A stretch of 52,646 nt of DNA from a virus (IMGVR_UViG_3300048592_000436:1-52646); one strand, 5' to 3'. Counted from the first letter of the stretch, positions 5,051 through 23,916 are shown. Numbers and translations: made by a program. Notes: generated from the letters alone by a model not told the origin.

Positions 5051-5074
5051 GGCGGGGCCGTTAGGCCGCCGCCT
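5051..5074 (-). repeat. 24-bp hairpin element AGGCGGCGGCCTAACGGCCCCGCC (copy 1)
   Basis: Identical to 23379-23402 on the opposite strand. Confidence 0.9.
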
Positions 5075-5333
5075 CTAGCTGGTTGCGCTGAACGAAGTAA
5101 CGGGCGCTGGGGCGATCATCCGGGCCATCAATCATCCGCCACGGGTCAAGGCCCATGCGGTGCGCCTCGTCGCTGACCCACGCCCAAAGCTGCATGTCGT
5201 GATCAAGACCGACAGTCATGTACCAGTCTGCTGTGACTTCCTGCCGATTGCAGCGTTCCGCGACGCTCTGAGCGTAGTCGGTAACTTCGCGGAAACCGCT
5301 GGGCCAGATTTTCGTGCTGTGCTGGATCATCAT
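5061..5333 (-). CDS. Hypothetical cassette gene
   Basis: CAAGGGAGAGACG-ATG leader directly behind the repeated promoter. Confidence 0.8.
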   Translation of the reverse strand: MMIQHSTKIWPSGFREVTDYAQSVAERCNRQEVTADWYMTVGLDHDMQLWAWVSDEAHRMGLDPWRMIDGPDDRPSARYFVQRNQLEAAA

Positions 5334-5337
5334 CGTC

Positions 5338-5402
5338 TCTCCCTTGCTACACCCCAAACATAACCGCACGGCGCACGCATTGCAAGCAGAAAATGCGCCG
5401 CA
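5338..5402 (-). promoter_or_regulatory. 65-bp repeated promoter/RBS unit, copy 1 (TTGCAA-N17-TATGTT)
   Basis: 62/65 identical to 5802-5866; a 24-bp segment is also duplicated at 5364-5387 and 5398-5421. Confidence 0.85.
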
Positions 5403-5499
5403 CGGCGCACGCATTGCAAGCGCTCCATTGGGTCATGTCTGTCTCCCTTGTGATCTGGCGCATTGCGGAACCGCCCCGAAGGGCGGCTCTGGCAATGGG

Positions 5500-5796
5500 T
5501 CAGGCCCGCATTTCGGTCGGGTCATCAGCATAGCGATAGGCAAACGCGGCCTCGCCGTTCCGCGAACGCTCCCAGATCAGCAGGGCGTCAGTCGTGGCGC
5601 CAAGAAGGCCGAGGCGGCCGATGCTGATAGGCTTGCGCATACCGCGAACGTGGATTTCCGCACCTTCGTGGTCGATCCAACAATCGTTTGCGGCGTCGAA
5701 GCTCTCGCCACGCAGCGCCGAAAGCGCATCGAGCGAAAGATGTCCGTGATCATCGCGAAAGCGGGCCTGAAAGTCGTTGGTGCGGAAAGTTGTCAT
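5500..5796 (-). CDS. Hypothetical cassette gene
   Basis: CAAGGGAG RBS; followed by GCCGCCC-TTCG-GGGCGGT hairpin. Confidence 0.8.
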   Translation of the reverse strand: MTTFRTNDFQARFRDDHGHLSLDALSALRGESFDAANDCWIDHEGAEIHVRGMRKPISIGRLGLLGATTDALLIWERSRNGEAAFAYRYADDPTEMRA

Positions 5797-5801
5797 CTCA
5801 A

Positions 5802-5866
5802 TCTCCCTTGCTACGCCCCAAACATAACCGCCCGGCGCACGCATTGCAAGCGGAAAATGCGCCGCA
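5802..5866 (-). promoter_or_regulatory. 65-bp repeated promoter/RBS unit, copy 2
   Basis: TTGCAA (5844-5849)-N17-TATGTT (5821-5826). Confidence 0.85.
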
Positions 5867-5873
5867 TGGCAAA

Positions 5874-6221
5874 TCATCGCGGCACGGTGGTTCCGTCCAA
5901 CTTCCGTTTCCACGGCGTCCCCTTGCTGCCGGGAATAGGCGAGCGGGAACGCTTGGCGCCGAGGTGCTTGGCCTCGACGCGCTTGGCCTTGGCGAGGGCT
6001 CCGAGGTCAGTCGCGGTCTTGCCGCGGTGGCAGGAGGCGCAAGCCGGTTGCAGGTTGTCCGAGCCGGTGTCCTCGTCCCCACCCATGGCGAGGGGGATCA
6101 CGTGCTCGATGTCCCAGCGGTCGCGGGTGCCGTCTATCTTGACCCCGCAAATGTGACACATCCCCCCGGCCGCGGCGAAGATCGCCAGACGCTCGCGGGG
6201 GCCTATGTGGCGGCGGGTCAT
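5874..6221 (-). CDS. HNH endonuclease
   Basis: CHICG...WDIEHVIPLAMGG.D...NLQPACASCHRGKT. Confidence 0.93.
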   Translation of the reverse strand: MTRRHIGPRERLAIFAAAGGMCHICGVKIDGTRDRWDIEHVIPLAMGGDEDTGSDNLQPACASCHRGKTATDLGALAKAKRVEAKHLGAKRSRSPIPGSKGTPWKRKLDGTTVPR

Positions 6222-6544
6222 TCACACGGCTCGCTCGGTCGAAGGGCATCCGGGGCAACACCGCCAATCACAGGGCATTTGCCAGCGGCGGCAAGATCGA
6301 TCACATATTGCAGCGCGGCAAGGCATACCGGCCCCATGCCGCTATGGCGCATCAGTTCACGCCGACCCAAGTCGGAGACCTCGCCAAGGGTCATGTTCTT
6401 CCACGCGCCTTCGGCATACGGTCGGGGCGGATCGCTCTCCTTGTAGCCGAGAGAGTACCGTTTCAACTGCCACGCGCTGCGGCCCAGGTGCGAATGCAGG
6501 GACCGCCAGTTGATTTCCTTCATGGGGATTTCGCGCCAGTTCAT
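6218..6544 (-). CDS. Protein with RNA polymerase alpha-CTD-like helix-hairpin-helix domain
   Basis: TLGEVSDLGRRELMRHSGMGPVCLAALQYVI resembles the alpha-CTD pattern (TIGDL...ELL+.PN.G.KSL.EI). Confidence 0.6.
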   Translation of the reverse strand: MNWREIPMKEINWRSLHSHLGRSAWQLKRYSLGYKESDPPRPYAEGAWKNMTLGEVSDLGRRELMRHSGMGPVCLAALQYVIDLAAAGKCPVIGGVAPDALRPSEPCE

Positions 6545-6894
6545 CGCACCCTCACCAGCAAGCCCATACGATAGGCATTGACGATAGCGGCGGTGCGCAG
6601 GGCGTCCCATTTTGCATCCGCCGGATAGTCGGAAAACTCCGCGACGATCGAGCCGCGAACCTCGTCGGTGATCAGATGCCAGTCGTCGCCATCCTCGCCA
6701 CTGTTCCCGAAAGAACAGACGAGCCAGCCAGAACCGGCGTCCGTCGTTGCGCGCACAGGCATGACGCTCGCCGGGTCCGGGAGCAATTCCAGCGCCTCGT
6801 TTTCCTGCGCCTTCTGGTCGCGGAATGCGCGCCCGGTGCCGAAGCCGGGCATATTGGCTATGGCGGTCAGTCGCTCGCGTTCGGCAGGGGTCAT
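6541..6894 (-). CDS. Hypothetical protein
   Basis: ATGA-coupled on both sides. Confidence 0.75.
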   Translation of the reverse strand: MTPAERERLTAIANMPGFGTGRAFRDQKAQENEALELLPDPASVMPVRATTDAGSGWLVCSFGNSGEDGDDWHLITDEVRGSIVAEFSDYPADAKWDALRTAAIVNAYRMGLLVRVR

Positions 6895-7082
6895 GGCATA
6901 TCCATCGCGATCTTGATGCCTTCCCGATCGGCCCATTCTGCCATGGCGCGGCATTGCGCCTTGGTCCTACCAAAGGTCGTGAAGGCGTAGTTGCCGTCAT
7001 CATCAACGGCGATGATGAGCATTCGCGTGGCGTCGGTTTCGTTCGCCAAGCGCCGGCATTCAGGGATTGAGACGTTTTTCAT
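6891..7082 (-). CDS. Hypothetical protein
   Basis: MKNVSIPECRRLA...; coupled. Confidence 0.7.
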   Translation of the reverse strand: MKNVSIPECRRLANETDATRMLIIAVDDDGNYAFTTFGRTKAQCRAMAEWADREGIKIAMDMP

Positions 7083-7477
7083 GCCTGCACCGCCTTTCCT
7101 GCTGTCACTCGGCCCACGATCTTGACATCTGCCACCACGTCGCCGGGGTGCGCGACGTATCCCGCGTGGATGCGCCTGGCCTTCCCCGGCCGCCCGTTTT
7201 TCAGGACCGACCGATAATGGATGCGCCGCCACCAGCGATCCTTTGACGACCAGTGAATTTCGGTGCCTTCGTAGATGCCGCAATCCCAGCGCCCGATCTG
7301 GATCAGCGTTTCGCCGCGTTTCAGACCAGCCTTGCGAATGGCGATCTTTGCGACGCGGCGGGCCTCCTTGTTGATGCGGGCAAACTCGGCTTCCTGTTTG
7401 GCGTGAAGGGCCTGGATTTGTGCCGATATGCGATCAACCCGGCGCAGGGCGGGGGCAATGTCTTTCATCCGCATCAC
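7079..7477 (-). CDS. Hypothetical protein
   Basis: Coupled ORF; LKNGRPG motif. Confidence 0.7.
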   Translation of the reverse strand: MMRMKDIAPALRRVDRISAQIQALHAKQEAEFARINKEARRVAKIAIRKAGLKRGETLIQIGRWDCGIYEGTEIHWSSKDRWWRRIHYRSVLKNGRPGKARRIHAGYVAHPGDVVADVKIVGRVTAGKAVQA

Positions 7478-7689
7478 TCCATCATCATCCAGCCGCACGC
7501 GCGGCAGTTCAGGTGCAAATGCTTGCGCGGCCCGGCGAGGCGGGCGATAGCGGCGCCCTTCTCATTGCAGTGAGGGCAGCGGCATTTGGCGGCCTTTAGC
7601 CCGCGCGCCTTGAGCTTGTCCTTGATGCCCATGGCGGCGCCCATCTCGGCCATGATCGCGTCCATGTCTGGAATGTCGTCGTCGGTCAT
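7474..7689 (-). CDS. Small zinc-ribbon protein
   Basis: CPHC...HLNCRACG. Confidence 0.75.
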   Translation of the reverse strand: MTDDDIPDMDAIMAEMGAAMGIKDKLKARGLKAAKCRCPHCNEKGAAIARLAGPRKHLHLNCRACGWMMME

Positions 7690-8081
7690 GCGCGTTCCTC
7701 GTATGGGTTAGGTTCCGACCATGGGACATGGTTTTCATCGCCCCAGGCTTGAATGAACGTGATAAGGTCCGCCATCTGGCGCACCGTCATGCGCGACGAA
7801 CGGAACCCGGCGGGAAACGGTCGCCCGTCCAAACCTGGAAGGAACTGAACTTCCCAGCCGCAAGCATTCATGAATATGCACTTCCATTCCTCGGCGGTGT
7901 AGCGCAGGCCCTGCGGCTCGGCCTTGGATACGTCGCCGAGCATGGCCCAGAGGCGGGCGTTCTGCTCCGTGGTCCGCGTCGGCTCGCGCAGGGTGACGAT
8001 CCATCCATCCTGCGCGGCCATGACTTGCTCGCAGGCGTAGCGGCGCTGGGCATGGCCGACAAGGCGGATGGTTTCGGTCAT
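7686..8081 (-). CDS. ninB: NinB/Orf-family recombination protein
   Basis: RTTEQNARLWAMLGDVS...EEWK...RSSRMTVRQMADLITFIQAWG. Confidence 0.9.
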   Translation of the reverse strand: MTETIRLVGHAQRRYACEQVMAAQDGWIVTLREPTRTTEQNARLWAMLGDVSKAEPQGLRYTAEEWKCIFMNACGWEVQFLPGLDGRPFPAGFRSSRMTVRQMADLITFIQAWGDENHVPWSEPNPYEERA

Positions 8082-8713
8082 GCGTCGACGTTCCTTTCCT
8101 CAGCGGTGAAGGTAAGGGCGGCCACCCAATCGTTGCGGTCCCATGCGTCGGGGCCGTGGCTGGCGTTCCAGTAGTCGGCAAACTCCTCGATCAGCCCCTC
8201 GCAGCCCCATGGCCCGGAGGCGTTGCCGCGAATGCCTTCCGCTCGCGCATCGTCCTCGCGGATCTCCTGCACCCTCTGAACCCGTACATCCGTCACGGTC
8301 AGGGTGATCCTAGACGCCCAGCGGGGCATGATGGCGGGGGAGCGCCATGGAATGTTGTCGCGCCATGCGTCGTCGTCGCAGCCCGGCGTGCCGTCAGTCT
8401 TGTAAAACGTTCGCGCCGCAGCGATGGGCTTGCCGTCCCCGTCGAGCAGCCAGCCGTTCGCCCACGTCTCCCGCACCCATATCCGGTCGCCGGGGGCGAA
8501 GGGGAATGACTGCGCACAACGGAACCCGTCCGGGAACGTGCCGGTGTAAATGCGATCCCAATGATCCTGCGTGAAGCCACTTTGCGTCGGACGGGGAATG
8601 TCCCGCCATAAGCCGCCTTCGTCTGGCTGCGGCTTCAGGATCAACCGATGCTGCGTTTTCGTTCCTGCGAGAACCGCGCGGACCTCGGGGCCGGTGAGGG
8701 TGAGGTAGGTCAT
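8078..8713 (-). CDS. ASCH/PUA-like phage protein
   Basis: VRAVLAGTKTQHR, PGDRIWVRETW, WRSPAIMPRWASRITLTVTDVRVQRVQEI. Confidence 0.85.
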   Translation of the reverse strand: MTYLTLTGPEVRAVLAGTKTQHRLILKPQPDEGGLWRDIPRPTQSGFTQDHWDRIYTGTFPDGFRCAQSFPFAPGDRIWVRETWANGWLLDGDGKPIAAARTFYKTDGTPGCDDDAWRDNIPWRSPAIMPRWASRITLTVTDVRVQRVQEIREDDARAEGIRGNASGPWGCEGLIEEFADYWNASHGPDAWDRNDWVAALTFTAEERNVDA

Positions 8714-8714
8714 G

Positions 8715-9401
8715 CTAGAATGCCTCCTTCTCATGCCAGACGCGAACCCCGCCGATCTGCGCGGCCTTGTGGTTCCGCCGGACGTATTCCTCAATGAATG
8801 CGGTGACGGCCTCGCGGTCATTCGCTGCGATCCAGTGCAACGTGGCGCGGTGGTCCTCGATGGCGTAGCGCGTCACGGTGCGCAGGCCCTTCACGGTGTC
8901 TTTGGACGCGGCGGCGGCTTTTGCCAGCGCTTCCTCGGCTTCCCGCTGCGCGTCGGCTGCGGCGCGCTGCGCGTCGATGTTGGCAGCGTCGGCAGCCATG
9001 GCCGCTTCCCGTGCGGCGCGCATGGCAGCCTCGGCCTCGGCTCGGGCCTTGCGCTCGGCTTCCGCTTTCTCGGCTGCCAGTTTGCGCTTGAATGCGTCGA
9101 GGATAGCGAGCAGCCCCTTGCGGATGCGCTCCAAGTCCTCGCGCGTCGGGGCAAACCGCGCCTTGGCAGCCTTCCATGCGTCGTAATAGGGCTTGGCCTC
9201 GCTGTCCTCGGCGGTGGCAACAGCCTTCTCGGCGGCCTTGATGCCCTTGAGCAGGGCATCAACCGCCTTCATCTGGCCCTCGTTCTCGACGGCAGTTCCG
9301 TCTAGCCAAGTCTCGGCCTCGGAGATCACGTCGCCATAAGGGGCGAGGGCGTCGTCTAGCGGATCGGGCGGGTTATTGTGGCCCTTGGCGGCAAGCGTCA
9401 T
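8715..9401 (-). CDS. Coiled-coil protein with GHNNPP N-terminus (recombination-module associated)
   Basis: GHNNPP motif, long Ala/Glu/Lys coiled coil; adjacent to the SSAP gene. Confidence 0.8.
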   Translation of the reverse strand: MTLAAKGHNNPPDPLDDALAPYGDVISEAETWLDGTAVENEGQMKAVDALLKGIKAAEKAVATAEDSEAKPYYDAWKAAKARFAPTREDLERIRKGLLAILDAFKRKLAAEKAEAERKARAEAEAAMRAAREAAMAADAANIDAQRAAADAQREAEEALAKAAAASKDTVKGLRTVTRYAIEDHRATLHWIAANDREAVTAFIEEYVRRNHKAAQIGGVRVWHEKEAF

Positions 9402-9411
9402 CGTCATCTCC

Positions 9412-10152
9412 CTAATAGGGTATGTCATCGCCGAGAATTTCCTTGAACTCTGCCTTGCGCCGATCCTTGGCCTTGATAACGCCGGGCGTCGCCTTGACGC
9501 TTGTTGGCAGGTCGGCCCATATCGCGGCGAGAGCGGCGAGGTTGTCCGTCGCGTTCAGCGCGTTGATCGCGTGCTCTGTCGGGATGGGCGCCGTGGTTTC
9601 GAGCGGCTCCCGCGCGGCCTTGTGATCCGGCGCTGGCGTCGGGTCAGTTACGGCCTTGTCCGTCTCTTCGTCGTGCGCCGGCCCGTGAAGGTCGCCCTTG
9701 TGCCAGAGGTCGAGCGCCGCGCCGAAGCGCATCGCGGCATTCCGCAGCGCGTCGCCGATGCATTCCTTGATCGCGTCGCCGCCGGTCTTGCCGTCCGGGT
9801 GCCCATAGCCAAGGCGCGTCTGCCCGCAGACGGTTAGCTTGATCCACATGCCGCCATTCGCATCGAAAGCCGGGGTGCCGTCCTCGCGTGTGGCGACGGG
9901 CTCCCAGTTCCACGCAAGATCGCAATCAAGCAGCCGATCAGTCAGGGCGGCATGGCCAACATAGTCCAGATGAACCGCGTCCGGGTGATGCCACTGGCCG
10001 CAAAGCTGGCAGCGAATGCCTTTCTTGAAGTCGGCGCGGACCTCGTCGGTTTGCCGCTTCGTCGCCTTGGGCAGCTTGGAAATCTGGTTAGCCGGGAATG
10101 GCTCGCGCAGAAGCGCAAGGCCAGTCGGCTTTGTGGGCGCCTTGTCGGTCAT
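9412..10152 (-). CDS. Rad52/Rad22 (Sak-like) single-strand annealing protein
   Basis: LDYVGHAALTDRL...WNWEP...WIKLTVCGQTRLGYG...KECIGDALRNAAMRFGAALDLW. Confidence 0.88.
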   Translation of the reverse strand: MTDKAPTKPTGLALLREPFPANQISKLPKATKRQTDEVRADFKKGIRCQLCGQWHHPDAVHLDYVGHAALTDRLLDCDLAWNWEPVATREDGTPAFDANGGMWIKLTVCGQTRLGYGHPDGKTGGDAIKECIGDALRNAAMRFGAALDLWHKGDLHGPAHDEETDKAVTDPTPAPDHKAAREPLETTAPIPTEHAINALNATDNLAALAAIWADLPTSVKATPGVIKAKDRRKAEFKEILGDDIPY

Positions 10153-10325
10153 TCCCCTTCCTCCAGCTTTGCGAGGGCGGCGCGGATGCGAACGATGGAC
10201 ACAAAGGTGTCGTCGGCAGCGGCAGAGCCGGCCTGTCGCCGCATCTCCAGCCAATTTGAGCCCGTCACCAGCGCCCACGTCAGCGCCTCGATCAGTTCCT
10301 CGCGGGTGAGATCGACGGGGGTCAT
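10149..10325 (-). CDS. Hypothetical protein (58 aa)
   Basis: MTPVDLTREELIEAL...IRAALAKLE; ATGA-coupled; absent from the ORF track. Confidence 0.6.
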   Translation of the reverse strand: MTPVDLTREELIEALTWALVTGSNWLEMRRQAGSAAADDTFVSIVRIRAALAKLEEGE

Positions 10326-10404
10326 TCGGTCGGCTCCTTGACGTTGGCGCGAAGGCGATCAAGAGCGGCCGTGACGGCGCGGAGAAGGCCGGGGTTGATG
10401 CAGT

Positions 10405-10641
10405 TCATCCCAGCAACTCCTTGATCCGGGCACAGAGGATTGCTTCTTCGTTACCCTCGGGCCGACCGTGTTCTCCGGCGTCGATTTCGGCGCGCCTCTC
10501 AAAGTATTCCTCACACTGGCCGAGGACTTCTTCCATTTCGGCAATAAGGCGTACCGCCTCGCGAAGGAGGCGCTCCGACGTTAACCGTCCGCTTGCAGAC
10601 AAAGCGAATGCGAGGCCGGACAATTCGGATTTGAGCCCCAT
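10405..10641 (-). CDS. Hypothetical protein
   Basis: Coupled ORF in the leftward operon. Confidence 0.65.
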   Translation of the reverse strand: MGLKSELSGLAFALSASGRLTSERLLREAVRLIAEMEEVLGQCEEYFERRAEIDAGEHGRPEGNEEAILCARIKELLG

Positions 10642-10889
10642 CACAGCGCTCCTGCCGGCCACGTCCGCGAGGGCCCGCTGGTGTGCGCTTCCTCATACTC
10701 ACGGTCCCGCAGTTCGTTGATGACGGACCATGTTGCATCCGTGCAGGACTTGGCGGACGGGTCGCATTTCCAGACCTGAGCCGGATTGCGCTCGGTCTCC
10801 TGACACATGTCGACGCACTCGGACACGGTATCGCAGTGATACCATTCGACGGGGTAGCCTTCGAGGTTTAGCAGGAAATACATTGTCAT
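10641..10889 (-). CDS. Hypothetical protein, first gene of the leftward operon
   Basis: GCAAAGGGAG RBS behind a promoter related to the 65-bp repeat. Confidence 0.75.
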   Translation of the reverse strand: MTMYFLLNLEGYPVEWYHCDTVSECVDMCQETERNPAQVWKCDPSAKSCTDATWSVINELRDREYEEAHTSGPSRTWPAGAL

Positions 10890-11007
10890 TCTCCCTTTGC
10901 TCCCCCGCACATTAAACCGCTCGGCGTACCCGGCGCAAGCGAAAAATGCGCACGCCGGCAAAAAATATCGCTTGACGCCCGATAGCCGCCCGGTTTACCA
11001 ATGACGC
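10890..11007. promoter_or_regulatory. Divergent promoter/operator region
   Basis: Leftward TTGCGC -35 and rightward TTGACG -35; three operator-like CCG-N2-CGG sites at 10913-10928, 10947-10962 (degenerate left half) and 10982-10997. Confidence 0.7.
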
Positions 11008-11244
11008 ATGGCACACGAAAGACCCTTCCAGGAACAAGGCGCCCGGCTCAAGGCGATGCTTCGCGAGCGGCGCATCAAGGCCAACGATCTGGCCGCTCAG
11101 GCCGGCATTCACCACGGCTCGATAAGCCGCTACGTCGGCGGTTTCCGGCGCCCGGATGCCGAGCACGCGATCAGGATTGCGGAGGCGCTGGGCATCTCGC
11201 CGGCAGAGCTTCGGCCTGATCTGGCGGAGGCGTTCAGGAAATGA
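11008..11244 (+). CDS. Cro/XRE-family HTH regulator
   Basis: LAAQAGIHHGSISRYVGGFRRPDAEHAIRIAEALGISPAELRPDL. Confidence 0.9.
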   Translation: MAHERPFQEQGARLKAMLRERRIKANDLAAQAGIHHGSISRYVGGFRRPDAEHAIRIAEALGISPAELRPDLAEAFRK

Positions 11245-11250
11245 CGAGAC

Positions 11251-11468
11251 CTGCCGAGGCATCGAGGCGACCTGTCCTCCCTCTGCCCGCCTCGGCAGTT
11301 ACTACCGGGACCGCGTTTGATGGTTGCGCGTCATGTTCACACACATCGACTGCCCCCGTCTCGACCGGCGCGGTCCCGGTTTTTCCCATTCCCATCCCGT
11401 GCTGGCGCCTCCCTCGCCGCCGGGTCAGCCGCCGCCGGGCGCTCCCCCGTCACATGCCCGGCGGCGGC
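11251..11468 (+). ncRNA. Structured intergenic RNA: three hairpins, with CCTCCC/CTCCCC-type C-rich stretches
   Basis: Inverted repeats 11251-60/11289-98, 11304-15/11369-80 (followed by a T-run), 11428-40/11456-68. Confidence 0.5.
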
Positions 11469-11490
11469 GTTAATTCCTGAGGGCAAGCCA

Positions 11491-12147: not shown

Positions 12148-12361
12148 CGACCTGCGCGAGCGCGAGATGGCTGCCCTCACGGCGCTGGCGCATGGCGACT
12201 GGCATTTGCCAGAGACGCCCGCGATGGCCCGCAAGATGGCCGAGTTGACCGCCATGGGCCTTGCTGAGGGCGGGAAAGGGCCGCGGCGCCATCGCCGCAG
12301 GCGCGCGGTCTACCGGATCACGGAATATGGCGCGAAGCATCTGGAGGGCGCAGAGCCATGA
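12140..12361 (+). CDS. Small winged-helix-like protein
   Basis: LTAMGLAE...YRITEYG motif; coupled. Confidence 0.65.
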   Translation: MYSDLREREMAALTALAHGDWHLPETPAMARKMAELTAMGLAEGGKGPRRHRRRRAVYRITEYGAKHLEGAEP

Positions 12362-13029
12362 CCCCCTCCGAGCGCATGGCCGCCGCATCCCTCGCCGTTG
12401 GCGTGGTCATGGGCTGGGATGCGCTCTGGGCTTCGGAGCCGTGTCGGCTGGCGCTGTCCCTCGGCCTCGATAGCTCGCAGAGCGTCGATGCAACGGAATG
12501 GCGCTTGCAGGTTGAGGGCGTGGCGGCGGCCTTGCGCGACGACTGGCTTGCGGAAAAGTTGGTCGCGGCCCGGATGAAGCTGCACGTCTACGAATGGTCC
12601 CATGCCCAGTGGGTGATCCTGCCCGCGACGGCGATCGAAAGCCGCGCCGACCTCGAGCGCGCCGCGACGGCGGTCCTGCGGCACACGCGGCGAGGCAATG
12701 CCGGGACCGGGACGGGCGCGGCGATCCTGTTCGGCGCCCAGGCCATCGCCGAGGCGGGGTGCTGGGAAGGCGTGCTGGACATATCCGGCGATGAGGACCA
12801 GAGCCTGAACCCCGGTCCGCGCGCGGCACGCGAGGCGATTGACCCCGAGATCACGATCAACGGGCTTGTCGTCGGAGCGCCTGAGCATGTCATCACTTGG
12901 TATCAGGAAAACGTCATCCAAGGCCCCTTTGCGTTCGTGGAATATGCCGAGGACTTCACGCAATTTGCCGAGGCGATGAGGCGGAAGATGGCGCGGGAAG
13001 TCGCGGCGGCGGTGGCGAAAACCCCTTGA
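12358..13029 (+). CDS. DUF1194 / vWA-domain protein
   Basis: CRLALSLGLDSSQSVD (DxSxS), LDISGD, ITINGL, YQENVIQGPFAFV...MRRKMAREVA. Confidence 0.85.
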   Translation: MTPSERMAAASLAVGVVMGWDALWASEPCRLALSLGLDSSQSVDATEWRLQVEGVAAALRDDWLAEKLVAARMKLHVYEWSHAQWVILPATAIESRADLERAATAVLRHTRRGNAGTGTGAAILFGAQAIAEAGCWEGVLDISGDEDQSLNPGPRAAREAIDPEITINGLVVGAPEHVITWYQENVIQGPFAFVEYAEDFTQFAEAMRRKMAREVAAAVAKTP

Positions 13030-13053: not shown

Positions 13054-13082
13054 GGCGCATGTGCAAAAGCGGGGAGGAGCTT

Positions 13083-15970: not shown

Positions 15971-15973
15971 CCG

Positions 15974-16040
15974 TTGCCCGCCCCGTCATTCTCGGCTAGG
16001 GTAGGGCGGCGGGGAGCGAACTGCAATCGCTCAACCCGCC
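15974..16040 (+). promoter_or_regulatory. Promoter TTGCCC-N17-TAGGGT followed by a leader hairpin
   Basis: GGCGGGGAGCGA-ACTGCAA-TCGCTCAACCCGCC upstream of the replication gene. Confidence 0.55.
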
Positions 16041-16113
16041 AGAGCAGCGAAAGAGGAGTTCGCCACATGCCGCATGACTACCACGGTTTGAACCGTTCGC
16101 GCAAGAGGCGCGA

Positions 16114-16614: not shown

Positions 16615-19099
16615 TCGGGTCCGGAGGAAGGAGCTTAGACCGCATCAGGTCAAGGCTATCGAGATGATCCGTCAATCCATTGGCAAGGGCAATAGGCGCG
16701 TGGTCTGCGGAATGCCGACAGGCGCGGGAAAGTGCCTAGGGCTTGGAACGCCCGTGATCTTGGCGAACGGTGAAATTGTACCCGTGCAGGATGTCAAGGT
16801 CGGAGACCGGCTTGCGTCGCCAACCGGGGAGCCTGTGACGGTCCTATCGTTGGCAAGGGGGAGAGAGGCGATGTTTCGCGTGACCCCGGTGAAGGGCGAC
16901 CCGTGGACCTGCAATGCGTCCCATCTGCTTTCGTTGAAGGCGACCGGCGTCGGCCGTGGAAGGACGTTCTTTTCTGATGGGCAGTTCTTCAGCGGAAATA
17001 AGGGAGAAACCATCACGATCCGGGCGGATGCACTCTACGCGAGCAACAAGACTGCAAAGCATGTTGCGAAGCAGTGGCGCCCGCAGGCCGTGAAATTCGA
17101 CAGCGTCGGGGAATTGGAATTGCCACCGTACATTCTCGGCGTTTGGCTAGGCGACGGCACGGCAACCGGACCGAGCATGAGCAAGCCAGATGGGCAGGTT
17201 TCGCAAGCGTGGGTGGAATACTGCGGGAGCCTGGGGTGTCATACAAGGGTTTCTTACGGATCGACAGGCTGCCCGACGTGGCACGCTGCGACGGCGGCGG
17301 GGCTTGCGAACCCGGTCCTAGACAAGTTGCGCAGCGTTGGAGTTCTACGAAATCGCCACATCCCGGTTACTTACAAGACATCTTCGATCAAGGACAGGCT
17401 TGCGCTTTTGGCCGGGCTTTTTGACACGGACGGGCATCAGTCGCAAAATGGGGTTGATTTCATCAGCAAGTCGGAAACCCTCGCCCGCGACGTTGCCTTT
17501 GTATGCCGGTCTGTCGGTTTGGCCGCTTACGTTCGAAAGTGCCGGAAGGGCATAGCTTCCACGGGCTTTTCGGCAGATTACTGGCGGGTTTACGTCAGTG
17601 GTGATTGCGAGAGGGTGCCTTGCAAGCGGCTGCAATTCAGGCCACGCCGTCAGATCAAGGATCACCTGGTGACAGGGTTCCGGATAGAACCGATCGGGGA
17701 AGGGGATTATTTCGGGTTTGAGTTGACGGGCGATCGGCTGTTTATGCTTGGCGATTTCACGGTGACGCATAACACCGTAACAGCGGCGAAGTTGATCGAA
17801 GGCGCCTTGGCCAAGGGAAACCGGGTGATCTTCACCGCGCCCGCGATCAGCCTGATTGACCAGACCGTGACGGCATTCGAGGACGAGGGCATCCACGGCA
17901 TTGGCGTGATGCAGGCGAGCCACCCGAGGACGGACCCGAGCGCGCGTGTTCAGGTGGCATCCCTTCAAACCCTGGCAAGGCGGGACATTCCGAGCGCTGC
18001 GCTGGTGATAGTTGACGAGTGCCACATTCGATCCGAGGTTATCGAAGGCCTGATGGCCGATCGTCCGGACGTGTTCTTCATCGGGCTATCGGCTACGCCA
18101 TGGGCGCGCGGAATGGGGCTGCATTGGCAGGATTTGGTGGTTCCGGTGACGATCTCGGAACTGATCGAGGCGGGGCTGTTGTCGCGGTTCACGGCCTTTG
18201 CGCCGGATGTTCCGGACCTGCGCGGGGTAAAGGTCCGGGGCGGGGATTACGTCGAGGAAGCGCTGGCGAAGGTGATGGGCGAGGCGAAGCTGGTTGGGTC
18301 GGTGGTCGGGACATGGCTGGAACGGGCCGGTGACAGGCCGACGCTTTGCTTTGCCGTCAACCGTGCGCACGCGGCGCAGCTTCAGGCCGAATTTCAGCGA
18401 TGCGGCGTCTCGGCGGCCTATGTGGACGCCATGACGGATCGCGTCGAGCGGCTGCGGATCAACCGGCAATTCCGATCCGGTGACGTGCGGGTGATATGTT
18501 CCGTGCGGACCATGACAACGGGCGTCGACCTGCCGGTGTCGTGCATCGTGGATGCGGCACCGACGAAAAGCGAGATGCTGCACGTTCAGAAGATCGGCCG
18601 CGGCTTGCGGGTCAATCCTGGGTCCGAGGATTGCCTGATCCTGGACCACGCCGGAAACAGCCTGCGCCTCGGCTTGGTTACGGACATAGGCCGCACCGCT
18701 CTGGACTGCACCCCACCGGGCGCGAAGCAGGAACGGAAGGCGGCGGCGGAGAAACTGCCGAAGCCGTGCGCGTCCTGCGGGGGGCTGCACACGGGGGCCA
18801 AGTGCCCGGCCTGCGGGCATGAGCGGAAGCCGGCGCGTATCGAGGCGACAACGGGCGAACTGGTCGAGTTGACCGGGAGGGCGCAGAAATGGGACAAACA
18901 ACTTTTCTGGTCGATGGCCCTGCATGTGGACATGGCGCGGGGAAAGGGCGGGAAACTGGCCAAGGCGCTTTACAAGGGGTGTTTCGGCGTGTGGCCGCGG
19001 GGGCTTGTGGACATTGCCACGCCACCGGATGAGCGGTTCCGGTCATACGAGACCAGCCGCAGAATTGCTTACGCGAAGCGCATGTGTAAGGCGGCCTGA
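16607..19099 (+). CDS. DEAD/DEAH SF2 helicase with C-terminal zinc ribbon; intein-containing
   Basis: MPTGAGK|T, VDECH, GLSATP, QKIGRGLR, CASC...CPACG. Confidence 0.95.
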   Translation: MLDRVRRKELRPHQVKAIEMIRQSIGKGNRRVVCGMPTGAGKCLGLGTPVILANGEIVPVQDVKVGDRLASPTGEPVTVLSLARGREAMFRVTPVKGDPWTCNASHLLSLKATGVGRGRTFFSDGQFFSGNKGETITIRADALYASNKTAKHVAKQWRPQAVKFDSVGELELPPYILGVWLGDGTATGPSMSKPDGQVSQAWVEYCGSLGCHTRVSYGSTGCPTWHAATAAGLANPVLDKLRSVGVLRNRHIPVTYKTSSIKDRLALLAGLFDTDGHQSQNGVDFISKSETLARDVAFVCRSVGLAAYVRKCRKGIASTGFSADYWRVYVSGDCERVPCKRLQFRPRRQIKDHLVTGFRIEPIGEGDYFGFELTGDRLFMLGDFTVTHNTVTAAKLIEGALAKGNRVIFTAPAISLIDQTVTAFEDEGIHGIGVMQASHPRTDPSARVQVASLQTLARRDIPSAALVIVDECHIRSEVIEGLMADRPDVFFIGLSATPWARGMGLHWQDLVVPVTISELIEAGLLSRFTAFAPDVPDLRGVKVRGGDYVEEALAKVMGEAKLVGSVVGTWLERAGDRPTLCFAVNRAHAAQLQAEFQRCGVSAAYVDAMTDRVERLRINRQFRSGDVRVICSVRTMTTGVDLPVSCIVDAAPTKSEMLHVQKIGRGLRVNPGSEDCLILDHAGNSLRLGLVTDIGRTALDCTPPGAKQERKAAAEKLPKPCASCGGLHTGAKCPACGHERKPARIEATTGELVELTGRAQKWDKQLFWSMALHVDMARGKGGKLAKALYKGCFGVWPRGLVDIATPPDERFRSYETSRRIAYAKRMCKAA
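16733..17773 (+). mobile_element. Intein (347 aa) with LAGLIDADG homing endonuclease
   Basis: Starts CLGLGTPV, ends VTHN before Thr; PYILGVWLGDG and LLAGLFDTDG blocks; inserted in Walker A. Confidence 0.95.
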
Positions 19100-20028
19100 T
19101 GTTTCACCAGCGGACCACGGATGCGACAACAGGGAAATGGCGTGGCGTGCTGTTGGAACTTGGCGTTCCTGATGCGGCGCTCAACGGTAAGCATGGGCCG
19201 TGCCCGTTCTGCGGTGGAAAGGATCGGTTCCGGTTTGATAACCGTGAGGGGCGGGGTACATGGATTTGCAATTCTTGCGGCGCTGGCGATGGAATGGAGT
19301 TCGCCACCCGCTTCACTGGGTTGCCTTTCAAGGATGCGGCCTCGCGGATTGATGAGATCATCGGCAACCTGAAGCCCGACACCATCCGGCGCCAGATGAG
19401 CGACGAGGAGGTGAGAGCTGCCATTCGGGAAGTAGCTGCGGCATCGGTCCCGATTACGCCGGGCGACCCGGTAGACCGCTATCTGACGAGCCGGGGGCTT
19501 AGGGATAGCCTTTACCCGTCGAGCCTGCGCTATGCCGCCGCTATCCGTGACGGCGAGGGCGGGGTAAGGCCGGCAATGATCGCCTCGGTAAAGGATGCGG
19601 ACGGCAAGTCCGTGACGCTGCACCGCACGTTCCTGGACCCTAGCGGGCGCAAGGCCGAAATGGCGTCGCCCCGCAAGATGATGCCCGGCACGGTGCCGGA
19701 GGGCGCATGTGTGAGGCTATGCGACGGGCACCCTGGCAGCGTGCTCGGCATCGCCGAGGGCATCGAGACGGCGCTTGCCGCATCGCGGCTTTTTGAAATC
19801 CCGGTATGGTCCGCGATCAGTTCCAGCCTGTTGACGAAATGGCAACCGCCTGAAGGCGTCGAGGAGGTGGTGATCTTCGCGGATAGCGACCCGAAGTTCG
19901 GCGGCCAGGCGGCGGCATATCATCTGGCCTATCGGCTGGCGCGAACGCTGCAAGTCTCGGTGAAGATGCCCCCGCGGGAGGGGATGGATTTTGCCGACGT
20001 GTTGTTTGAAACGGCTTGTTCGCCGTAA
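19099..20028 (+). CDS. Zinc-finger/Toprim DNA primase
   Basis: HGPCPFCGGKDRFRFD...WICNSCG; GIAEGIETALA; IFADSD. Confidence 0.92.
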   Translation: MFHQRTTDATTGKWRGVLLELGVPDAALNGKHGPCPFCGGKDRFRFDNREGRGTWICNSCGAGDGMEFATRFTGLPFKDAASRIDEIIGNLKPDTIRRQMSDEEVRAAIREVAAASVPITPGDPVDRYLTSRGLRDSLYPSSLRYAAAIRDGEGGVRPAMIASVKDADGKSVTLHRTFLDPSGRKAEMASPRKMMPGTVPEGACVRLCDGHPGSVLGIAEGIETALAASRLFEIPVWSAISSSLLTKWQPPEGVEEVVIFADSDPKFGGQAAAYHLAYRLARTLQVSVKMPPREGMDFADVLFETACSP

Positions 20029-20044
20029 CGAAACGCGCTATGCT
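20016..20044 (+). promoter_or_regulatory. Promoter TTGTTC-N17-TATGCT
   Basis: Correct spacing; AAGGGGAGAGG RBS downstream. Confidence 0.55.
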
Positions 20045-20075
20045 GACGGTCTATCGGAAGGGGAGAGGCTTTGCG

Positions 20076-20252
20076 ATGTTGGAGCTAGCCGAGGCCAGAA
20101 TGGCGGAGCGGGACGCTGAGGCAGAACGGATTTACGACGCCGTAGCCGGGAGGGCCGTGGATCGGGAATACGAAAATCTCCGGCGGAAAAATTCGGTGCT
20201 AGCTATAGGCCGGAGACGTGAATCAGCGGCCCGCCGTGTGATTTGGTGCTGA
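20076..20252 (+). CDS. Hypothetical protein
   Basis: RBS plus promoter. Confidence 0.6.
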   Translation: MLELAEARMAERDAEAERIYDAVAGRAVDREYENLRRKNSVLAIGRRRESAARRVIWC

Positions 20253-20253
20253 C

Positions 20254-20466
20254 ATGACCCCCGCCGAACGCATGGCCCGTCTTCGCAAGCTCCGCCCCCT
20301 CGGATACGTGTCCGTTTCCCTCGGCTCTGGCCATCGCGCGGATACTGGTTGGGTTCCCACCGCCTTCGCAGACCGCATCCGCCGTGAGATCGCGGAACAC
20401 CGTGCAAGCGTAGACGCGGCACTGGCGCAAGGGCCGGTGAAGCAGTCCGAGGGGTGGGAAGGATGA
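20254..20466 (+). CDS. Small putative DNA-binding protein (ribbon-helix-like)
   Basis: MTPAERMARLR...GYVSV...GWVP pattern. Confidence 0.55.
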   Translation: MTPAERMARLRKLRPLGYVSVSLGSGHRADTGWVPTAFADRIRREIAEHRASVDAALAQGPVKQSEGWEG

Positions 20467-20708
20467 CCATGCATCAGCCGGTACCCGCCACAGAGCGCAG
20501 CCACAAGGCCCCGTGCCTGCGGATCGGCTACATCGCCCGGCCTTGTGACTCGTGACCGTCGACGGTGAAACCCTCACAGATGACGAGAGCCTCGTTGAAT
20601 ACCTGCCGAAGTCGTTCATGTGCCAGCGCGCGGCAGAGGAAGCCCTGATCGCCGCCCGCTTTGCCGAGGCGGACCTGCACCGGATCATGATGGGGGGGCG
20701 GGGGTGAC

Positions 20709-21239
20709 ATGGTGCTACGCCCCCGGAACGGACTCTCCCTCTGCGCAGGAGGTGGTGGCCTCGATATGGGCCTCATGCTTGCCGAGCCCGGCTTCCACAG
20801 CCGCGCCTTCGTCGAGTGGGAGGAATACCCCCGCAGCGTCCTCATCGCCGCCCAGCGGGCCGGATACTTCGCCCCTGCCCCGATCTGGGACGATCTCACC
20901 AGCTTCGACGCCAGCCCCCTCGCCGGGGCCATCGACACCCTGCTCGCCGGATACCCCTGCCAGCCGTTCAGCATGGCGGGACAGCGGCGCGGAGAGGATG
21001 ACGAGCGGCACCTCTGGCCCCACGTCGCCCGTGTCGCCCGCGAGCTCGGCGACGGGCTGCGCTGGATCTTCCTCGAAAACGTCGCCGGTCACGTCATGCA
21101 GCACCCGAAGGTCAAGACGTGTTCGGTTTGCGGGGAGACCTTCACTCCACACCCCGACACGAGGTCGCGCGTCAAGACGTGTTCGAAGGTGTGTCGGTAT
21201 CAGTCTCAGGCGCAGGCGATGCGCGCAAGGCATTCTTGA
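20709..21239 (+). pseudogene. Truncated C5-cytosine methyltransferase fused to a zinc-finger segment
   Basis: Motifs I (SLCAGGGG), IV (GYPCQPFS) and VI (FLENV) present; motifs VIII-X and TRD absent; ends KTCSVCGETF...KTCSKVC. Confidence 0.75.
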
Positions 21240-21404
21240 TATGGCAGCAGGACATGCGTGGCGCTCTCTCGCGGCTGCCCACGGCCTATGCCCCCTGGAT
21301 ATGGCAGGAGCCGGCGACTATCGCGCAACCGGAGCAGGCGGCGCTGGACCTGCGATGCACGGCGGACGGATAGATCGCATGGAATGCAAGCAGGGAGAGG
21401 GCGC

Positions 21405-21566
21405 ATGACTTGGAGAACGATAGCCGTCGATTGCGTGCACATGGCGCTGTTGGCCTTCGCTTGGTACATGGCCTTCTTCGTTCTGGGCGACCTGTTCGGA
21501 CTGACGTGGGCGTATACAATCGCGGCGGCGTGGATCGCATCGGCAAAAGTGGGAGAGGGCGCATGA
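21405..21566 (+). CDS. Small membrane protein
   Basis: Two hydrophobic segments; GGGAGAGGG RBS. Confidence 0.65.
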   Translation: MTWRTIAVDCVHMALLAFAWYMAFFVLGDLFGLTWAYTIAAAWIASAKVGEGA

Positions 21567-22165
21567 AGACCACCGAATATCTCAGAGGATACGAGGATGC
21601 GACGCGAGCGGCGGCGGAAACCGCGAGGGGCTGGGATGAAGAGGTCGTCGCCCGGTCGATCGAGTTGGAGGCCAAGAAGCACGTCGCGACCCTGACCGCC
21701 GAGATCGAAGCCCGCGCCGAAGCCACGCGGGAAATGTCACGGCTAGGGCAGGAGTGCGATGGCGCGATCGTTCGAGAGGCTGGGCGCGATTGGTCAGCCG
21801 AGCCTGTGTGGAGCCGCAACATCAGCATCAATGACCCGTTGCCGCAAAGCGCAGGCGGGACGTGGAAGGCCTTGTCTGAATTCGAGGTGATCCCGGACGG
21901 CCCGGTCTTGCTCTACTTCGGCGCCCGCCAATGGCGGACGGCGGATGGGGCCGCGGCACAACTGGACACGGTCAGGGATTATGTGGAGCGCGCCGGGGCG
22001 GCCTTCGCGGAAGCCGGCGACATCTTCGAGGCCGGCACCGCGCATAGTGTGTGGGAAGACTGGCGTTTCCCTTGCAACGTGCCAACGCATTGGATGCCGA
22101 TGCCGGCGGCCCCTGAAAATGCCAAGTGGACCGCTACCGACAGCGGCGCGGAGGGTGGGCTATGA
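21563..22165 (+). CDS. Hypothetical protein with DUF551-like C-terminus
   Basis: PTHWMPMPAAP motif. Confidence 0.75.
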   Translation: MKTTEYLRGYEDATRAAAETARGWDEEVVARSIELEAKKHVATLTAEIEARAEATREMSRLGQECDGAIVREAGRDWSAEPVWSRNISINDPLPQSAGGTWKALSEFEVIPDGPVLLYFGARQWRTADGAAAQLDTVRDYVERAGAAFAEAGDIFEAGTAHSVWEDWRFPCNVPTHWMPMPAAPENAKWTATDSGAEGGL

Positions 22166-22533
22166 AGCCTCTCGGACACAAGGCATATGGGTCAATCCCG
22201 CACCTGCCAATGTCTCGGCTGGGACCGGGTGATTATCACTGCCACGAGGGCCAGGCGCGGATCGCGACCGAAACTCTGCGGGACAGGCACGATCGGGTCA
22301 TTGTCACCGAGAAACTCGACGGCTCGAATGTAGCGGTTGCGAACGTCGGCGGCGAGATTTTTCCGCTCACGCGCGCAGCGATCGACCCGGTAGAGGGCGC
22401 GGTGTGGCGCGTAGAGAGGCGCGGCAAGTTCGATTTCATGGCGAAGTTCGTCCGGCACGACAAGTCGGATGGCAAGTACCTCGCCAGCGTGACGGGCGGC
22501 GATCCGGTTCCTCTGGCGGTGGTGTGGAAATAA
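22162..22533 (+). pseudogene. Internally deleted RNA-ligase-family protein
   Basis: Motif I TEKLDGSN and C-terminal VEGAVWR...AKFVR retained in only 123 aa; central motifs missing. Confidence 0.65.
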
Positions 22534-22537
22534 AACG

Positions 22538-23050
22538 ATGCCTAAAGCTCGCCGCCGCCCCGCCCCTCTTCCACCGCTGATGCCCCCTACGCCACAAGCG
22601 GCGGCCAAGGGCGCATACGAGGTGACGCGCCTGGAAAAGAACGGCGACCGCATCGCCATCAACGCCCATGTCTCGCCCCTCCGCTATCTGGCCGGGAAAA
22701 AGACCATCACACAATGGGAACGCGAGGCGGGCGAGCATTTCGAGGCAGCGCACAGGCTGGCGTGGGGCGGCGGTGGAACAAATGTCATAGCCAAGATGAT
22801 GGTGCTCGGCGTAGGCGGCATTCGCGGCGGCGGCATAGACGAGGGCCTGCACGTCAAGCAGTGGGCGGAGGGCAGGATTGACCAGATACGCCAGCTTGCG
22901 GGCTTCTCGGCTTATTCCATCCTTCTGGACGTAGCCGTCCACCAGCTATCATTCGGGCGCGGGCGTGGCAAACGGGCGTTGTCCAACCTGGAGCTACTGC
23001 GGGCGGGGCTTGGCGCGGCGGCGGACGTGTTCGGGGTTGAGCGGCGGTAA
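22538..23050 (+). CDS. Putative late transcription regulator / antiterminator (DUF6456-like)
   Basis: PLRYLAGKKTITQWEREAGEHF...LRAGLGAAADVFG; located before the late promoter. Confidence 0.65.
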   Translation: MPKARRRPAPLPPLMPPTPQAAAKGAYEVTRLEKNGDRIAINAHVSPLRYLAGKKTITQWEREAGEHFEAAHRLAWGGGGTNVIAKMMVLGVGGIRGGGIDEGLHVKQWAEGRIDQIRQLAGFSAYSILLDVAVHQLSFGRGRGKRALSNLELLRAGLGAAADVFGVERR

Positions 23051-23057
23051 AATAATT

Positions 23058-23135
23058 CCGCACAATGCCGGAAAACCCCCTTGCATGTGCGGCAGGTGCC
23101 GGATATATATAGGGCATCAGCAAGGGAGACGACAG
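23058..23135 (+). promoter_or_regulatory. Cassette promoter TTGCAT-N17-TATATA with GCAAGGGAGAC leader
   Basis: Inverted CCGCACA/TGTGCGG and two TGCCGGA repeats around -35; leader matches the left-arm cassettes. Confidence 0.75.
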
Positions 23136-23378
23136 ATGAGCGCAGCAACAGAAGCAATGGTGGCGGAAATGGCCGAAATCGTTCGCGCCGAGGGCATACT
23201 GTACCCGGCATTCCTTCAGCCCCGTCGCGGCGGGATCAGCGCGACGGTATCGGCAGCGGTTCGGATCGCCAAGAAGCGCGGCTTGATCGTCGAAGGCGGC
23301 AAGGACGGCTGGGGGAAACGGTACTACGTGGCGCCAGTCCCGCCCGCGACGCACCCGGCGCCCGGCAACATCAACTGA
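23136..23378 (+). CDS. Hypothetical cassette gene (winged-helix-like)
   Basis: Strong RBS; VSAAVRIAKKRGLIV. Confidence 0.75.
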   Translation: MSAATEAMVAEMAEIVRAEGILYPAFLQPRRGGISATVSAAVRIAKKRGLIVEGGKDGWGKRYYVAPVPPATHPAPGNIN

Positions 23379-23402
23379 AGGCGGCGGCCTAACGGCCCCG
23401 CC
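23379..23402 (+). repeat. 24-bp hairpin element (copy 2)
   Basis: Identical to the reverse complement of 5051-5074. Confidence 0.9.
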
Positions 23403-23895: not shown

Positions 23896-23916
23896 TTCGG
23901 CAAGATGAAGTGTTGC

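Follow-up and report, generated by a model that had tools for sequence, protein, structure and literature searches.

The window analysed here, a 52,646-bp virus record from IMG/VR (IMGVR_UViG_3300048592_000436, 64% GC), carries two copies of a short GC-rich hairpin element that recurs at gene junctions in many other phages. The 24-mer AGGCGGCGGCCTAACGGCCCCGCC lies at 5051-5074 on the minus strand and at 23379-23402 on the plus strand with 0 mismatches, just as an earlier reading made from the sequence alone (the sequence-only reading) had reported, and a two-match outcome arises in 0/100 dinucleotide shuffles of the window. No third site is found in the window at up to three mismatches. A repeat finder stretches the inverted pair to 31 nt with 90% complementarity and 18,290 nt between the arms; the extension from 24 to 31 nt adds 5/8 matches upstream and is possibly a product of chance. 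The RNA of the 24-mer is predicted to fold as GGCGG-C-GGCC/UAAC/GGCC-CCGCC, a GC stem of 9 bp that has one bulged C and is capped by a UAAC loop (−18.7 kcal/mol, z = −3.0), and the predicted stem-loop is kept in both local contexts.

Both copies are internal to operons and co-oriented with their genes, and they are mutually inverted because the two arms that hold them are transcribed divergently. At the minus copy, geneB (Table 1) reads into the hairpin and takes its stop codon from the TAA of the loop, and an ATG at 5024 follows the ribosome-binding site (RBS). The gene ahead of the plus copy ends in a TGA one base short of the 24-mer, and the next ATG lies at 23423. The sequence-only reading had placed each copy at the end of a gene and just before an RBS; the RBS and start codon are there at both sites, but the minus-strand gene ends inside the hairpin loop. 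Within the 10 nt 3′ of the stem there is a single T at either copy. When the plus copy is read in the frame of its loop TAA (23081-23392), that frame ends ...QLKAAA*, resembling the ...QLEAAA* end of geneB; the likeness may be chance, or a trace of the plus copy's origin in a geneB-type gene end.

The sequence-only reading had proposed searching for the motif in other phages and tabulating the flanking genes, and this search finds it in many phage genomes, tied to gene boundaries and ribosome-binding sites. IMG/VR contigs contain the 23-nt core in 100 stretches; another 114 contain an allele in which the innermost C-G becomes U-A, so that pairing is preserved. In prokaryotes, sampled as one genome each for 185,579 species, the core occurs at only 2 loci, both in metagenome-assembled genomes, and at least one of these is a 7-kb phage-like contig whose context matches that of viral contigs. 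Host repeats of the repetitive extragenic palindrome or bacterial interspersed mosaic element type (REP/BIME) have many chromosomal copies, and no such multiplicity is seen across those genomes. Two cultured Brevundimonas jumbo phages, Marchewka and Bambus, are the only ones of 50,697 deposited phage records in which the exact core is found, and three further records match it at 22/23 bases. Phage Marchewka (348-kb genome) holds one copy, and an annotated coding sequence terminates at its loop TAA. Copy number is 1-2 per genome at up to three mismatches in five long carrier records of roughly 35 kb, and most genomes are single-copy. An Rfam 15 covariance-model search with 5 loci gives 0 matches at E up to 1, and no description of the motif was found in the searchable literature (full-text searches for the core sequence and for roseophage stem-loop topics), which does not cover most subscription journals.

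The carriers include unrelated phage lineages. Two of them, G001 and G005, are podovirus-like, 35 and 34 kb long and 99-100% complete, and have their hairpins within a short operon of small genes that also encodes a RecE-like exonuclease. The G001-type portal occurs in 9/25 long carrier records and in 4/5 complete ones, so other lineages carry the element too. The window is one such case: its portal is of siphovirus type, with its best match to Paracoccus phage Pkon1 at 39%, whereas the portals of G001 and G005 are of podovirus type, and BLASTP finds no protein in common between the window and either genome. Megablast of 8-kb pieces around each window copy against the 50,697 phage records returns no match. 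The nearest cultured relative of G001, phage C72C1 (portal 68% identical), lacks the hairpin. The hosts are presumed to be Alphaproteobacteria because the carriers include Brevundimonas phages and show weak matches to Roseobacter phages, portal matches to Sulfitobacter phages and the match to the Paracoccus phage.

The setting of the hairpin is highly regular. Once identical contexts (±100 nt) were merged, 83 distinct ones with 200-nt flanks remained of 114 instances, the window supplying two; the U-A allele contributes 89 distinct contexts, giving 172 for the two alleles together. The order at these junctions is an A-rich gene end, a 5′ arm translated as Ala-Ala-Ala, the TAA stop in the loop, a CA-rich spacer, the RBS AAGGGAGA and a start codon. 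The loop TAA closes the longest upstream frame in 67/83 contexts (71/89 for the U-A allele), and an RBS, mostly AAGGGAGA, with a start codon 15-28 nt past the stem follows in 75/83 (80/89). In 580 nt of spacer taken from 74 contexts, A (43%) and C (44%) predominate over G (6%) and T (7%). The hairpin lies within the minimum free energy structure of 72/83 contexts, each folded as 113 nt.

A run of at least five T in the 9 nt after the stem is seen in 0/83 contexts and in 4/89 for the U-A allele. Ordinary hairpins with T-runs end the same operons further on (G001 22360, G005 30877 and window 23915), and in two loci (L012 and L072) a separate terminator-like hairpin stands immediately after the element. 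As a candidate intrinsic terminator in the sense direction, the element has the GC-rich hairpin (9 bp, −18.7 kcal/mol) and lacks both the U-tract and the position at the end of a transcription unit. With no U-tract, an RBS and start codon close behind and canonical terminators further on, it is therefore not a sense-direction intrinsic terminator. Fusion to the next gene, by programmed frameshift or by read-through, was also rejected, since the start codons fall in the three frames 27, 31 and 17 times in 75, without bias.

A strict position after promoter-proximal genes did not hold either. Only about half of the upstream families scored (21/42) have no preceding co-directional open reading frame (ORF). 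In 10 of the 42, a gap of 29-39 nt separates the end of the preceding ORF from the start, as at a hairpin-type junction. The general order of promoter, RBS, cargo, hairpin and RBS claimed in the sequence-only reading therefore describes the window and one outside family and is not a rule for the rest. The commonest upstream gene family (L231-L241, alignment A5) has a promoter-like region about 60-120 nt before its start, and the interval that separates its −35-like box from its −10-like box holds a perfect palindrome, TACCACAGTGGTA, that could be an operator. A second family of junction hairpins, GGCGGGGC-UUCG-GCCCCGCC, also occurs in these contigs (L105 19490-19513, L006, L009, L029 and others). 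Its spacer and RBS follow the grammar of the 23-mer, but its stop codon lies upstream of the stem. The hairpin that follows geneA in the window, at 5470-5488, is of this general UUCG type.

Variation within the element preserves the fold. At the innermost pair, 24 distinct aligned variants have C-G 17 times, U-A 4 times and U-G 3 times, with 0 non-pairs, although the pattern used to collect them also permitted C-A. Across these variants 92.1% of cells are paired and four pairs vary on both sides; the observed covariation is reached in 0/500 shuffles, and slid-alignment controls are 36-63% paired. The TAAC loop and the neighboring GG/CC pairs are invariant in all 24. When only the outer stem was fixed, a relaxed scan gave at least 122 matches; among the matches listed, the inner eight bases were CTTAACAG in 15, CCTAACGG in 11, CTTAACGG in 2 and CCTAACAG in 0, the remainder being unrelated GC-rich sequence.

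A sample anchored on the gene, and not selected on the hairpin, gives a similar picture. It comprises 11 relatives (76-100% amino acid identity) of one upstream gene, nine of which were aligned, and the hairpin is kept in 9/9 of those. The only changes within it are C to U giving G.U, a double change to U-A, and C to U in the bulge, and the last 65 nt of the gene vary at more positions than the hairpin does. Of the single-sided changes, 8 contexts show G.U on the sense strand; 2 show A.C, which corresponds to G.U on the antisense strand, one of these at the terminal pair and the other in unrelated sequence. This wobble pattern favors selection of the fold on the sense strand, whether as RNA or as single-stranded DNA.

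The hairpin also coincides with the points at which related contigs stop resembling each other. The 83 contexts divide into 56 upstream and 63 downstream sequence families. Among context pairs that share a flank, 38 share only the upstream side, 38 only the downstream side and 3 both. The corresponding counts are 35, 28 and 15 for pairs within the U-A allele and 34, 12 and 0 for pairs across alleles; in all of these, merging near-identical contigs reduces the class that shares both sides. With pairs grouped by family, upstream identity extends up to the hairpin in 40/40 one-sided pairs, and similarity stops at its 3′ edge in 36/40; in the remaining four it runs on through 12-18 nt of spacer and RBS. 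For pairs that share only the downstream side, no similarity is seen 5′ of the hairpin in 36/39. In the gene-anchored set, a single gene and its hairpin are followed by at least seven different downstream genes. These breakpoints fit the proposal of the sequence-only reading that the element delimits exchangeable mini-modules and may have a role in recombination, and that module grammar is broadly right, reaching well beyond the window.

The shared side reaches a median of only about 300 nt, which indicates that small genes are arrayed here one by one, like cassettes. We reject chimeric assembly as the source of the mosaic junctions by inference from two facts: the larger k-mers of metagenome assemblers exceed 23 nt, and many samples contain the same junction families. 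Recombination genes lie in the same operons, namely a single-strand annealing protein (SSAP), an exonuclease and NinB in the window and the RecE-like exonuclease in G001 and G005.

Within the window, the leftward early operon encodes the SSAP, the exonuclease, NinB and an HNH endonuclease; small unknown genes come next. The rightward arm starts with a Cro/CI-type helix-turn-helix gene and continues through helicases, methyltransferases, RusA and primase to terminase, portal and major head genes. The coordinates of the features around the two hairpin copies are collected in Table 1.

Table 1. Features at and around the two hairpin copies in the window
Feature	Position	Strand	Description
Hairpin copy 1	5051..5074 (core 5051-5073)	-	loop TAA 5063-5061 is the geneB stop codon
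Hairpin copy 2	23379..23402 (core 23380-23402)	+	upstream gene stops at TGA 23376-23378
geneA	5500..5796	-	98 aa, no family match
geneB	5061..5333	-	90 aa, ends ...QLEAAA*; last three Ala codons form the hairpin 5′ arm
geneC	4671..5024	-	117 aa, downstream of copy 1, RBS AAGGGAGG at 5040-5033
P1 promoter and leader	5797..5885	-	94% identity to P2 across 69 nt; GCAAGGGAGA 5802-5811
P2 promoter and leader	5334..5422	-	-35 TTGCAA 5385-5380, 17-nt spacer, -10 TATGTT 5362-5357, GCAAGGGAGA 5347-5338
Leftward early promoter and leader	10884..10972	-	third member of the 69-nt repeat family, 67% identity
P23 promoter and leader	23081..23135	+	TTGCAT 23081-23086, 17-nt spacer, TATATA 23104-23109, GCAAGGGAGA 23120-23129
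Promoter-proximal gene of the P23 unit	23136..23378	+	80 aa, no family match
Gene downstream of copy 2	23423..23656	+	77 aa, RBS AGGGAG 23410-23415
Canonical terminator-like hairpin and T-run	23915..23946	+	closes the P23 unit of three genes; 8 T in 10 nt
Different intercistronic hairpin, GCCGCCC-UUCG-GGGCGG	5470..5488	-	3′ of geneA; the remnant RBS comes next
Duplicated junction remnant, CCAGATCACAAGGGAG..ATGACCCAATGGAGCG	5420..5458	-	read directly from the sequence; repeats the spacer, RBS and first five geneC codons found behind copy 1 (5050-5009)

Two promoter-led units in tandem make up the setting of the minus-strand hairpin: P1-geneA-(UUCG hairpin)-remnant comes first and P2-geneB-hairpin-RBS-geneC second. 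The spacer, the RBS and the first 16 nt of geneC occur twice, at 5458-5420 and at 5050-5009, and this duplication indicates that the P2-geneB-hairpin unit was spliced ahead of geneC by recombination. The sequence-only reading had linked the two loci by a shared leader and a TTGCA −35 element, and both are present: GCAAGGGAGA is exact at three sites, each ahead of a start codon, with TTGCA-type −35 hexamers, 17-nt spacers and −10 hexamers TATGTT or TATATA upstream. An alignment of four promoters from the window and one from another contig retains CTTGC, a TAT-type hexamer and AGCAAGGGAG in common. On the minus strand the promoters and leaders form a 69-nt family at 5338-5421, 5802-5870 and 10891-10959, with 100%, 94% and 67% identity. 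On the plus strand, the terminator at 23915 ends the P23 unit, which makes hairpin copy 2 internal to its operon.

Several other features of the window stand apart from the element. An HNH endonuclease gene (5874-6221, minus strand) lies immediately upstream of the P1/P2 tandem and could be a homing-type element that adds to local rearrangement. No relatives of geneC were found among viral contigs. A strong hairpin without a T-run stands at 28950-28971(+), immediately 3′ of the major head gene (27538-28938), with an RBS and start behind it; it too is an intercistronic stem-loop, of a sequence unlike the 24-mer. The early right arm holds a gene for a DUF1194 protein (12358-13029, plus strand; E = 6e-47), an unusual phage cargo, and five 46-nt units at multiples of 63 nt (41949-42318, plus strand) lie within a large late gene that probably encodes a repeat-containing tail or fiber protein. 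The ends of the window, 1-162 and 52485-52646, form a 162-nt direct repeat with 99% identity, although the record is classed as "linear, no end repeats" and 76% complete; the repeat may represent terminal redundancy or a circular assembly overlap, in which case the genome would be complete.

From these observations we infer both an RNA function and a recombination mechanism. We consider it moderately probable that the element is an intercistronic stem-loop of the sense-strand mRNA, non-terminating, that doubles as a shared 23-bp junction at which accessory genes are swapped, with the junction role weighted above any particular RNA function. The stem-loop would form on the sense strand inside polycistronic accessory or early-gene mRNAs. 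Its 5′ arm is translated as Ala-Ala-Ala and its loop supplies the TAA stop, with the unpaired CA-rich spacer and a strong Shine-Dalgarno sequence next, and transcription would pass through the hairpin to the following cistron. As an autonomous fold in the mRNA, it would block 3′-to-5′ decay of the upstream cistron after cleavage and insulate neighboring cistrons; a processing or stabilizing site, as the sequence-only reading suggested, is thus plausible.

At the level of DNA, the 23 bp is the sole sequence common to otherwise unrelated gene neighbors, and on that account would be the crossover point for the exchange of small genes between co-infecting phages. Crossover could proceed by short-homology recombination through the annealing and exonuclease proteins of the phage or by template switching at the palindrome. 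Recombinants would survive because the joint restores both the stop of the upstream gene and the RBS of the downstream gene. The two copies in the window belong to two separate promoter-driven units of small genes on divergent arms.

Several points weigh against this interpretation. An identity of 23 bp is short for efficient homologous recombination by lambda Red-type systems. The gene-by-gene mosaic implies that other junctions exist, possibly without the hairpin, and the hairpin may mark tolerated junctions instead of causing them. No homologs of the genes that flank the hairpin in the window were found in the carrier loci compared, so no exchange is demonstrable in the window's own lineage. 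Alignment recovers no relatives of geneB in viral contigs and 2 in metagenome contigs, both without the hairpin; these homologs end ...ARAA, and one of them has the same promoter grammar as the window. Unmasking of the Shine-Dalgarno sequence by the hairpin leaves no signal: the median unpaired probability of its core is 0.51, with values below 0.5 in 36/74 contexts, and with so unremarkable a figure an insulation effect is not visible in silico. The hairpin-anchored sets were chosen for exact matches, which makes conservation inside them circular, and the outer-stem scan and the gene-anchored sample, the only sets to escape this, each do so just partly. Finally, the favored model does not explain an enrichment of A-tracts 5′ of the hairpin.

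These A-tracts are what an alternative reading would predict, in which the element is a polar terminator against antisense transcription: the opposite strand would present a GC hairpin followed by a U-tract, and sense transcription would pass. Positions −1 to −4 are 61-73% A against a background of 24%, and at least five A in 8 nt are found in 24/56 and 30/56 upstream families for the two alleles, against backgrounds of 2.7% and 4.8%. Such a tract (for example at L005 1493-1500) makes the opposite strand resemble a canonical terminator. The carrier operons of G001 and G005 are, in addition, embedded between oppositely transcribed blocks. However, the tract is absent in about half of the families, and both window copies (3-4 A in 8 nt) and both G001 copies are without it. 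The A-tract may partly reflect a preference for a Lys codon ahead of Ala-Ala-Ala, where Lys stands in about half of cases. The sense-strand features are more constant, with the in-frame TAA in 81% and 80% of contexts and an RBS afterwards in 90%, and sense-strand wobble pairs outnumber antisense ones (8 contexts against 2). We therefore regard an antisense terminator as unlikely.

Less likely again is that the hairpin is an mRNA site for a protein or ribonucleoprotein, such as a nut/boxB-like antitermination site, the target of a translational repressor or a hairpin for a host RNase. Binding would account for the near-invariant loop and inner stem described above and for a copy number of just 1-2 in genomes of roughly 35 kb. 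In the window and one outside family the hairpin follows the first gene past a promoter, the two divergent arms of the window hold one copy each, and the plus copy lies upstream of the terminator that precedes the packaging genes. Yet the invariance of the loop is equally explained by its in-frame TAA stop, and half of the scored families have a preceding co-directional ORF, so that the site is not specifically promoter-proximal. In comparison with lambda-type nut sites, the flanks of the 23-mer are unconserved, leaving no second box, and the window shares no protein with G001 or G005, so that any binding partner would be a host factor. No Rfam family matches.

A DNA site for site-specific recombination, either the crossover site of an invertase or a miniature attC-like site, would allow an 18-kb flip between the window copies or the enzymatic insertion of cassettes, and we judge it very improbable. 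The element is an imperfect palindrome with an asymmetric center and one extrahelical base. Its loop region (5057-5063 and 23388-23394) reads GCCTAAC, or GCTTAAC in the other allele, and fits the integron inverse-core box RYYYAAC, with the complement GTTAGGC fitting the core box GTTRRRY, as these boxes are given in PMC3053210; the fit of one 7-mer in a 23-nt element is probably a coincidence. A small serine recombinase gene lies downstream of the hairpin in 7 contexts with 6 different upstream families (for example a 208-aa protein at L056 1541-2167), and in all five of the carrier records that encode a resolvase (G002, G016, G020, G023 and G024) the gene is less than 1 kb from the hairpin. 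Those five are, however, only 5/25 carrier records; an integrase occurs in 2/25, and neither enzyme in any of the 5 complete genomes. The window itself has no PF00589 or PF00239 protein, and thus neither an integron integrase nor the adjacent serine invertase of Gin/Hin-type invertible segments. The inversion of the 18-kb segment suggested in the sequence-only reading accordingly finds no support, since the window lacks a tyrosine or serine recombinase and the identity between the arms is only 24-31 bp. Orientation is always tied to reading frame and RBS, most genomes have a single copy, and the sense-strand G.U pattern points to RNA.

According to PMC3053210, integron attC sites are 57-141 bp long, bounded by RYYYAAC and GTTRRRY, contain two simple sites with two pairs of integrase-binding boxes and need IntI. 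Like the 23-mer, they are imperfect palindromes at the 3′ end of promoterless cassettes; the 23-mer also has an extrahelical base and, in its loop region, a match to RYYYAAC. Unlike attC sites, the 23-mer has a single stem and fits RYYYAAC only once, at the loop, and no integrase travels along with it. Equally improbable is an ordinary Rho-independent sense terminator or attenuator duplicated by chance in the window phage: a stable GC-rich stem-loop at gene ends would suit it, but it is contradicted by the missing U-tract, by the RBS and start codon close behind, by the canonical or terminator-like hairpins downstream, and by the recurrence of the exact sequence in more than 200 stretches, which is no local accident.

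Among known systems, the sense-strand stem-loop with a junction role that we favor shares features with several. Morons are genes that sit among older phage genes as insertions and bring a promoter and terminator of their own. The P23 unit, with its promoter (23081-23109), three small genes and terminator, shows this layout as judged by sequence patterns, and the P1 and P2 units share it; the 23-mer, in contrast, is not the terminator of a moron and sits between the first and second gene of the P23 unit. In the puf operon of Rhodobacter, intercistronic stem-loops with locus-specific sequences set segmental mRNA stability. The likeness lies in a GC-rich hairpin without a U-tract between cistrons of an alphaproteobacterial-type operon with read-through, but the puf hairpins are not an identical 23-mer across hundreds of unrelated junctions and are not known to have a stop codon in the loop. 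The start-associated and extended start-associated sequences (SAS/ESAS) of Cluster K mycobacteriophages are reportedly short motifs next to translation starts that overlap the RBS and are confined to one cluster. They resemble the 23-mer as conserved short motifs repeated beside the translation starts of several phage genes and differ in not being gene-end hairpins, and we know of no report of SAS at mosaic junctions across lineages.

Of the known systems, the promoter-early stem-loop (PeSL) of T4-type phages comes closest. As described by Arbiol et al. 2010 (PMC2839356), it joins a strong promoter of sigma-70-like type with a stem-loop that terminates effectively; its copies, several per genome, flank small non-essential genes in plastic regions, and recombination between them, with mini-circles as a product, is proposed to shuffle the modules. 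Like the PeSL so described, the 23-mer is a conserved short motif with a stem-loop at the boundaries of insertions, deletions and replacements between related phages. The two differ in composition, since the 23-mer unit is a stop, hairpin, spacer and RBS with neither promoter nor U-tract; its flanks are a gene end and an RBS, and the promoters of the window lie one gene upstream. The 23-mer further differs from the PeSL in its 1-2 copies per genome, in overlapping a coding end and in being common to unrelated lineages. A separate feature of the window also recalls PeSLs: P2 carries an extra 24-nt internal duplication that produces a terminator-like stem-loop and T-run directly upstream of its −35 element, a terminator-then-promoter layout.

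The 23-mer also bears on the idea of linkers, in which short conserved boundary sequences allow homologous recombination of modules. PMC3029335, which cites this idea, adds that at most mosaic boundaries no such sequence can be found. The 23-mer resembles the postulated linkers in being a short sequence common to module junctions whose neighbors are otherwise unrelated. It differs in being one defined 23-mer with two alleles, found in 172 junction contexts with homology breaking at its edges, and in being a structured RNA as well.

We tentatively entertain a broader claim, which is possible but less likely than the reading above: that the 23 nt are a "cassette joint" universal in phages of Alphaproteobacteria, one that makes small accessory genes plug-and-play as a recombinase-free counterpart of attC. 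If this were true, the joint would span marine podoviruses of about 35 kb, the 52-kb siphovirus-like phage of the window and the 348-kb Brevundimonas jumbo phages. Any gene ending in the joint and any gene starting after it could be linked by recombination there, with correct termination, folding and translation retained. The joint would also exemplify, more plainly than any natural example to date, the linkers that have been proposed for modular phage evolution. Bolder still, and by analogy with ssrA-type tags, the obligatory C-terminal Ala-Ala-Ala might act as a protease degron that keeps these early proteins short-lived.

The origin of mosaicism in phage genomes is a long-standing question, and homologous exchange at short boundary sequences was proposed early as an answer. 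Here, a single defined sequence lies at 172 distinct junctions and is common to lineages without a detectable shared protein. The element yields a simple annotation rule, in which a gene ends at the loop TAA and the next start lies 15-28 nt past the stem, and it offers a compact natural part, combining stop, insulator and RBS, for operon design in Alphaproteobacteria. Because it is present in cultured Brevundimonas phages, the linker hypothesis becomes directly testable.

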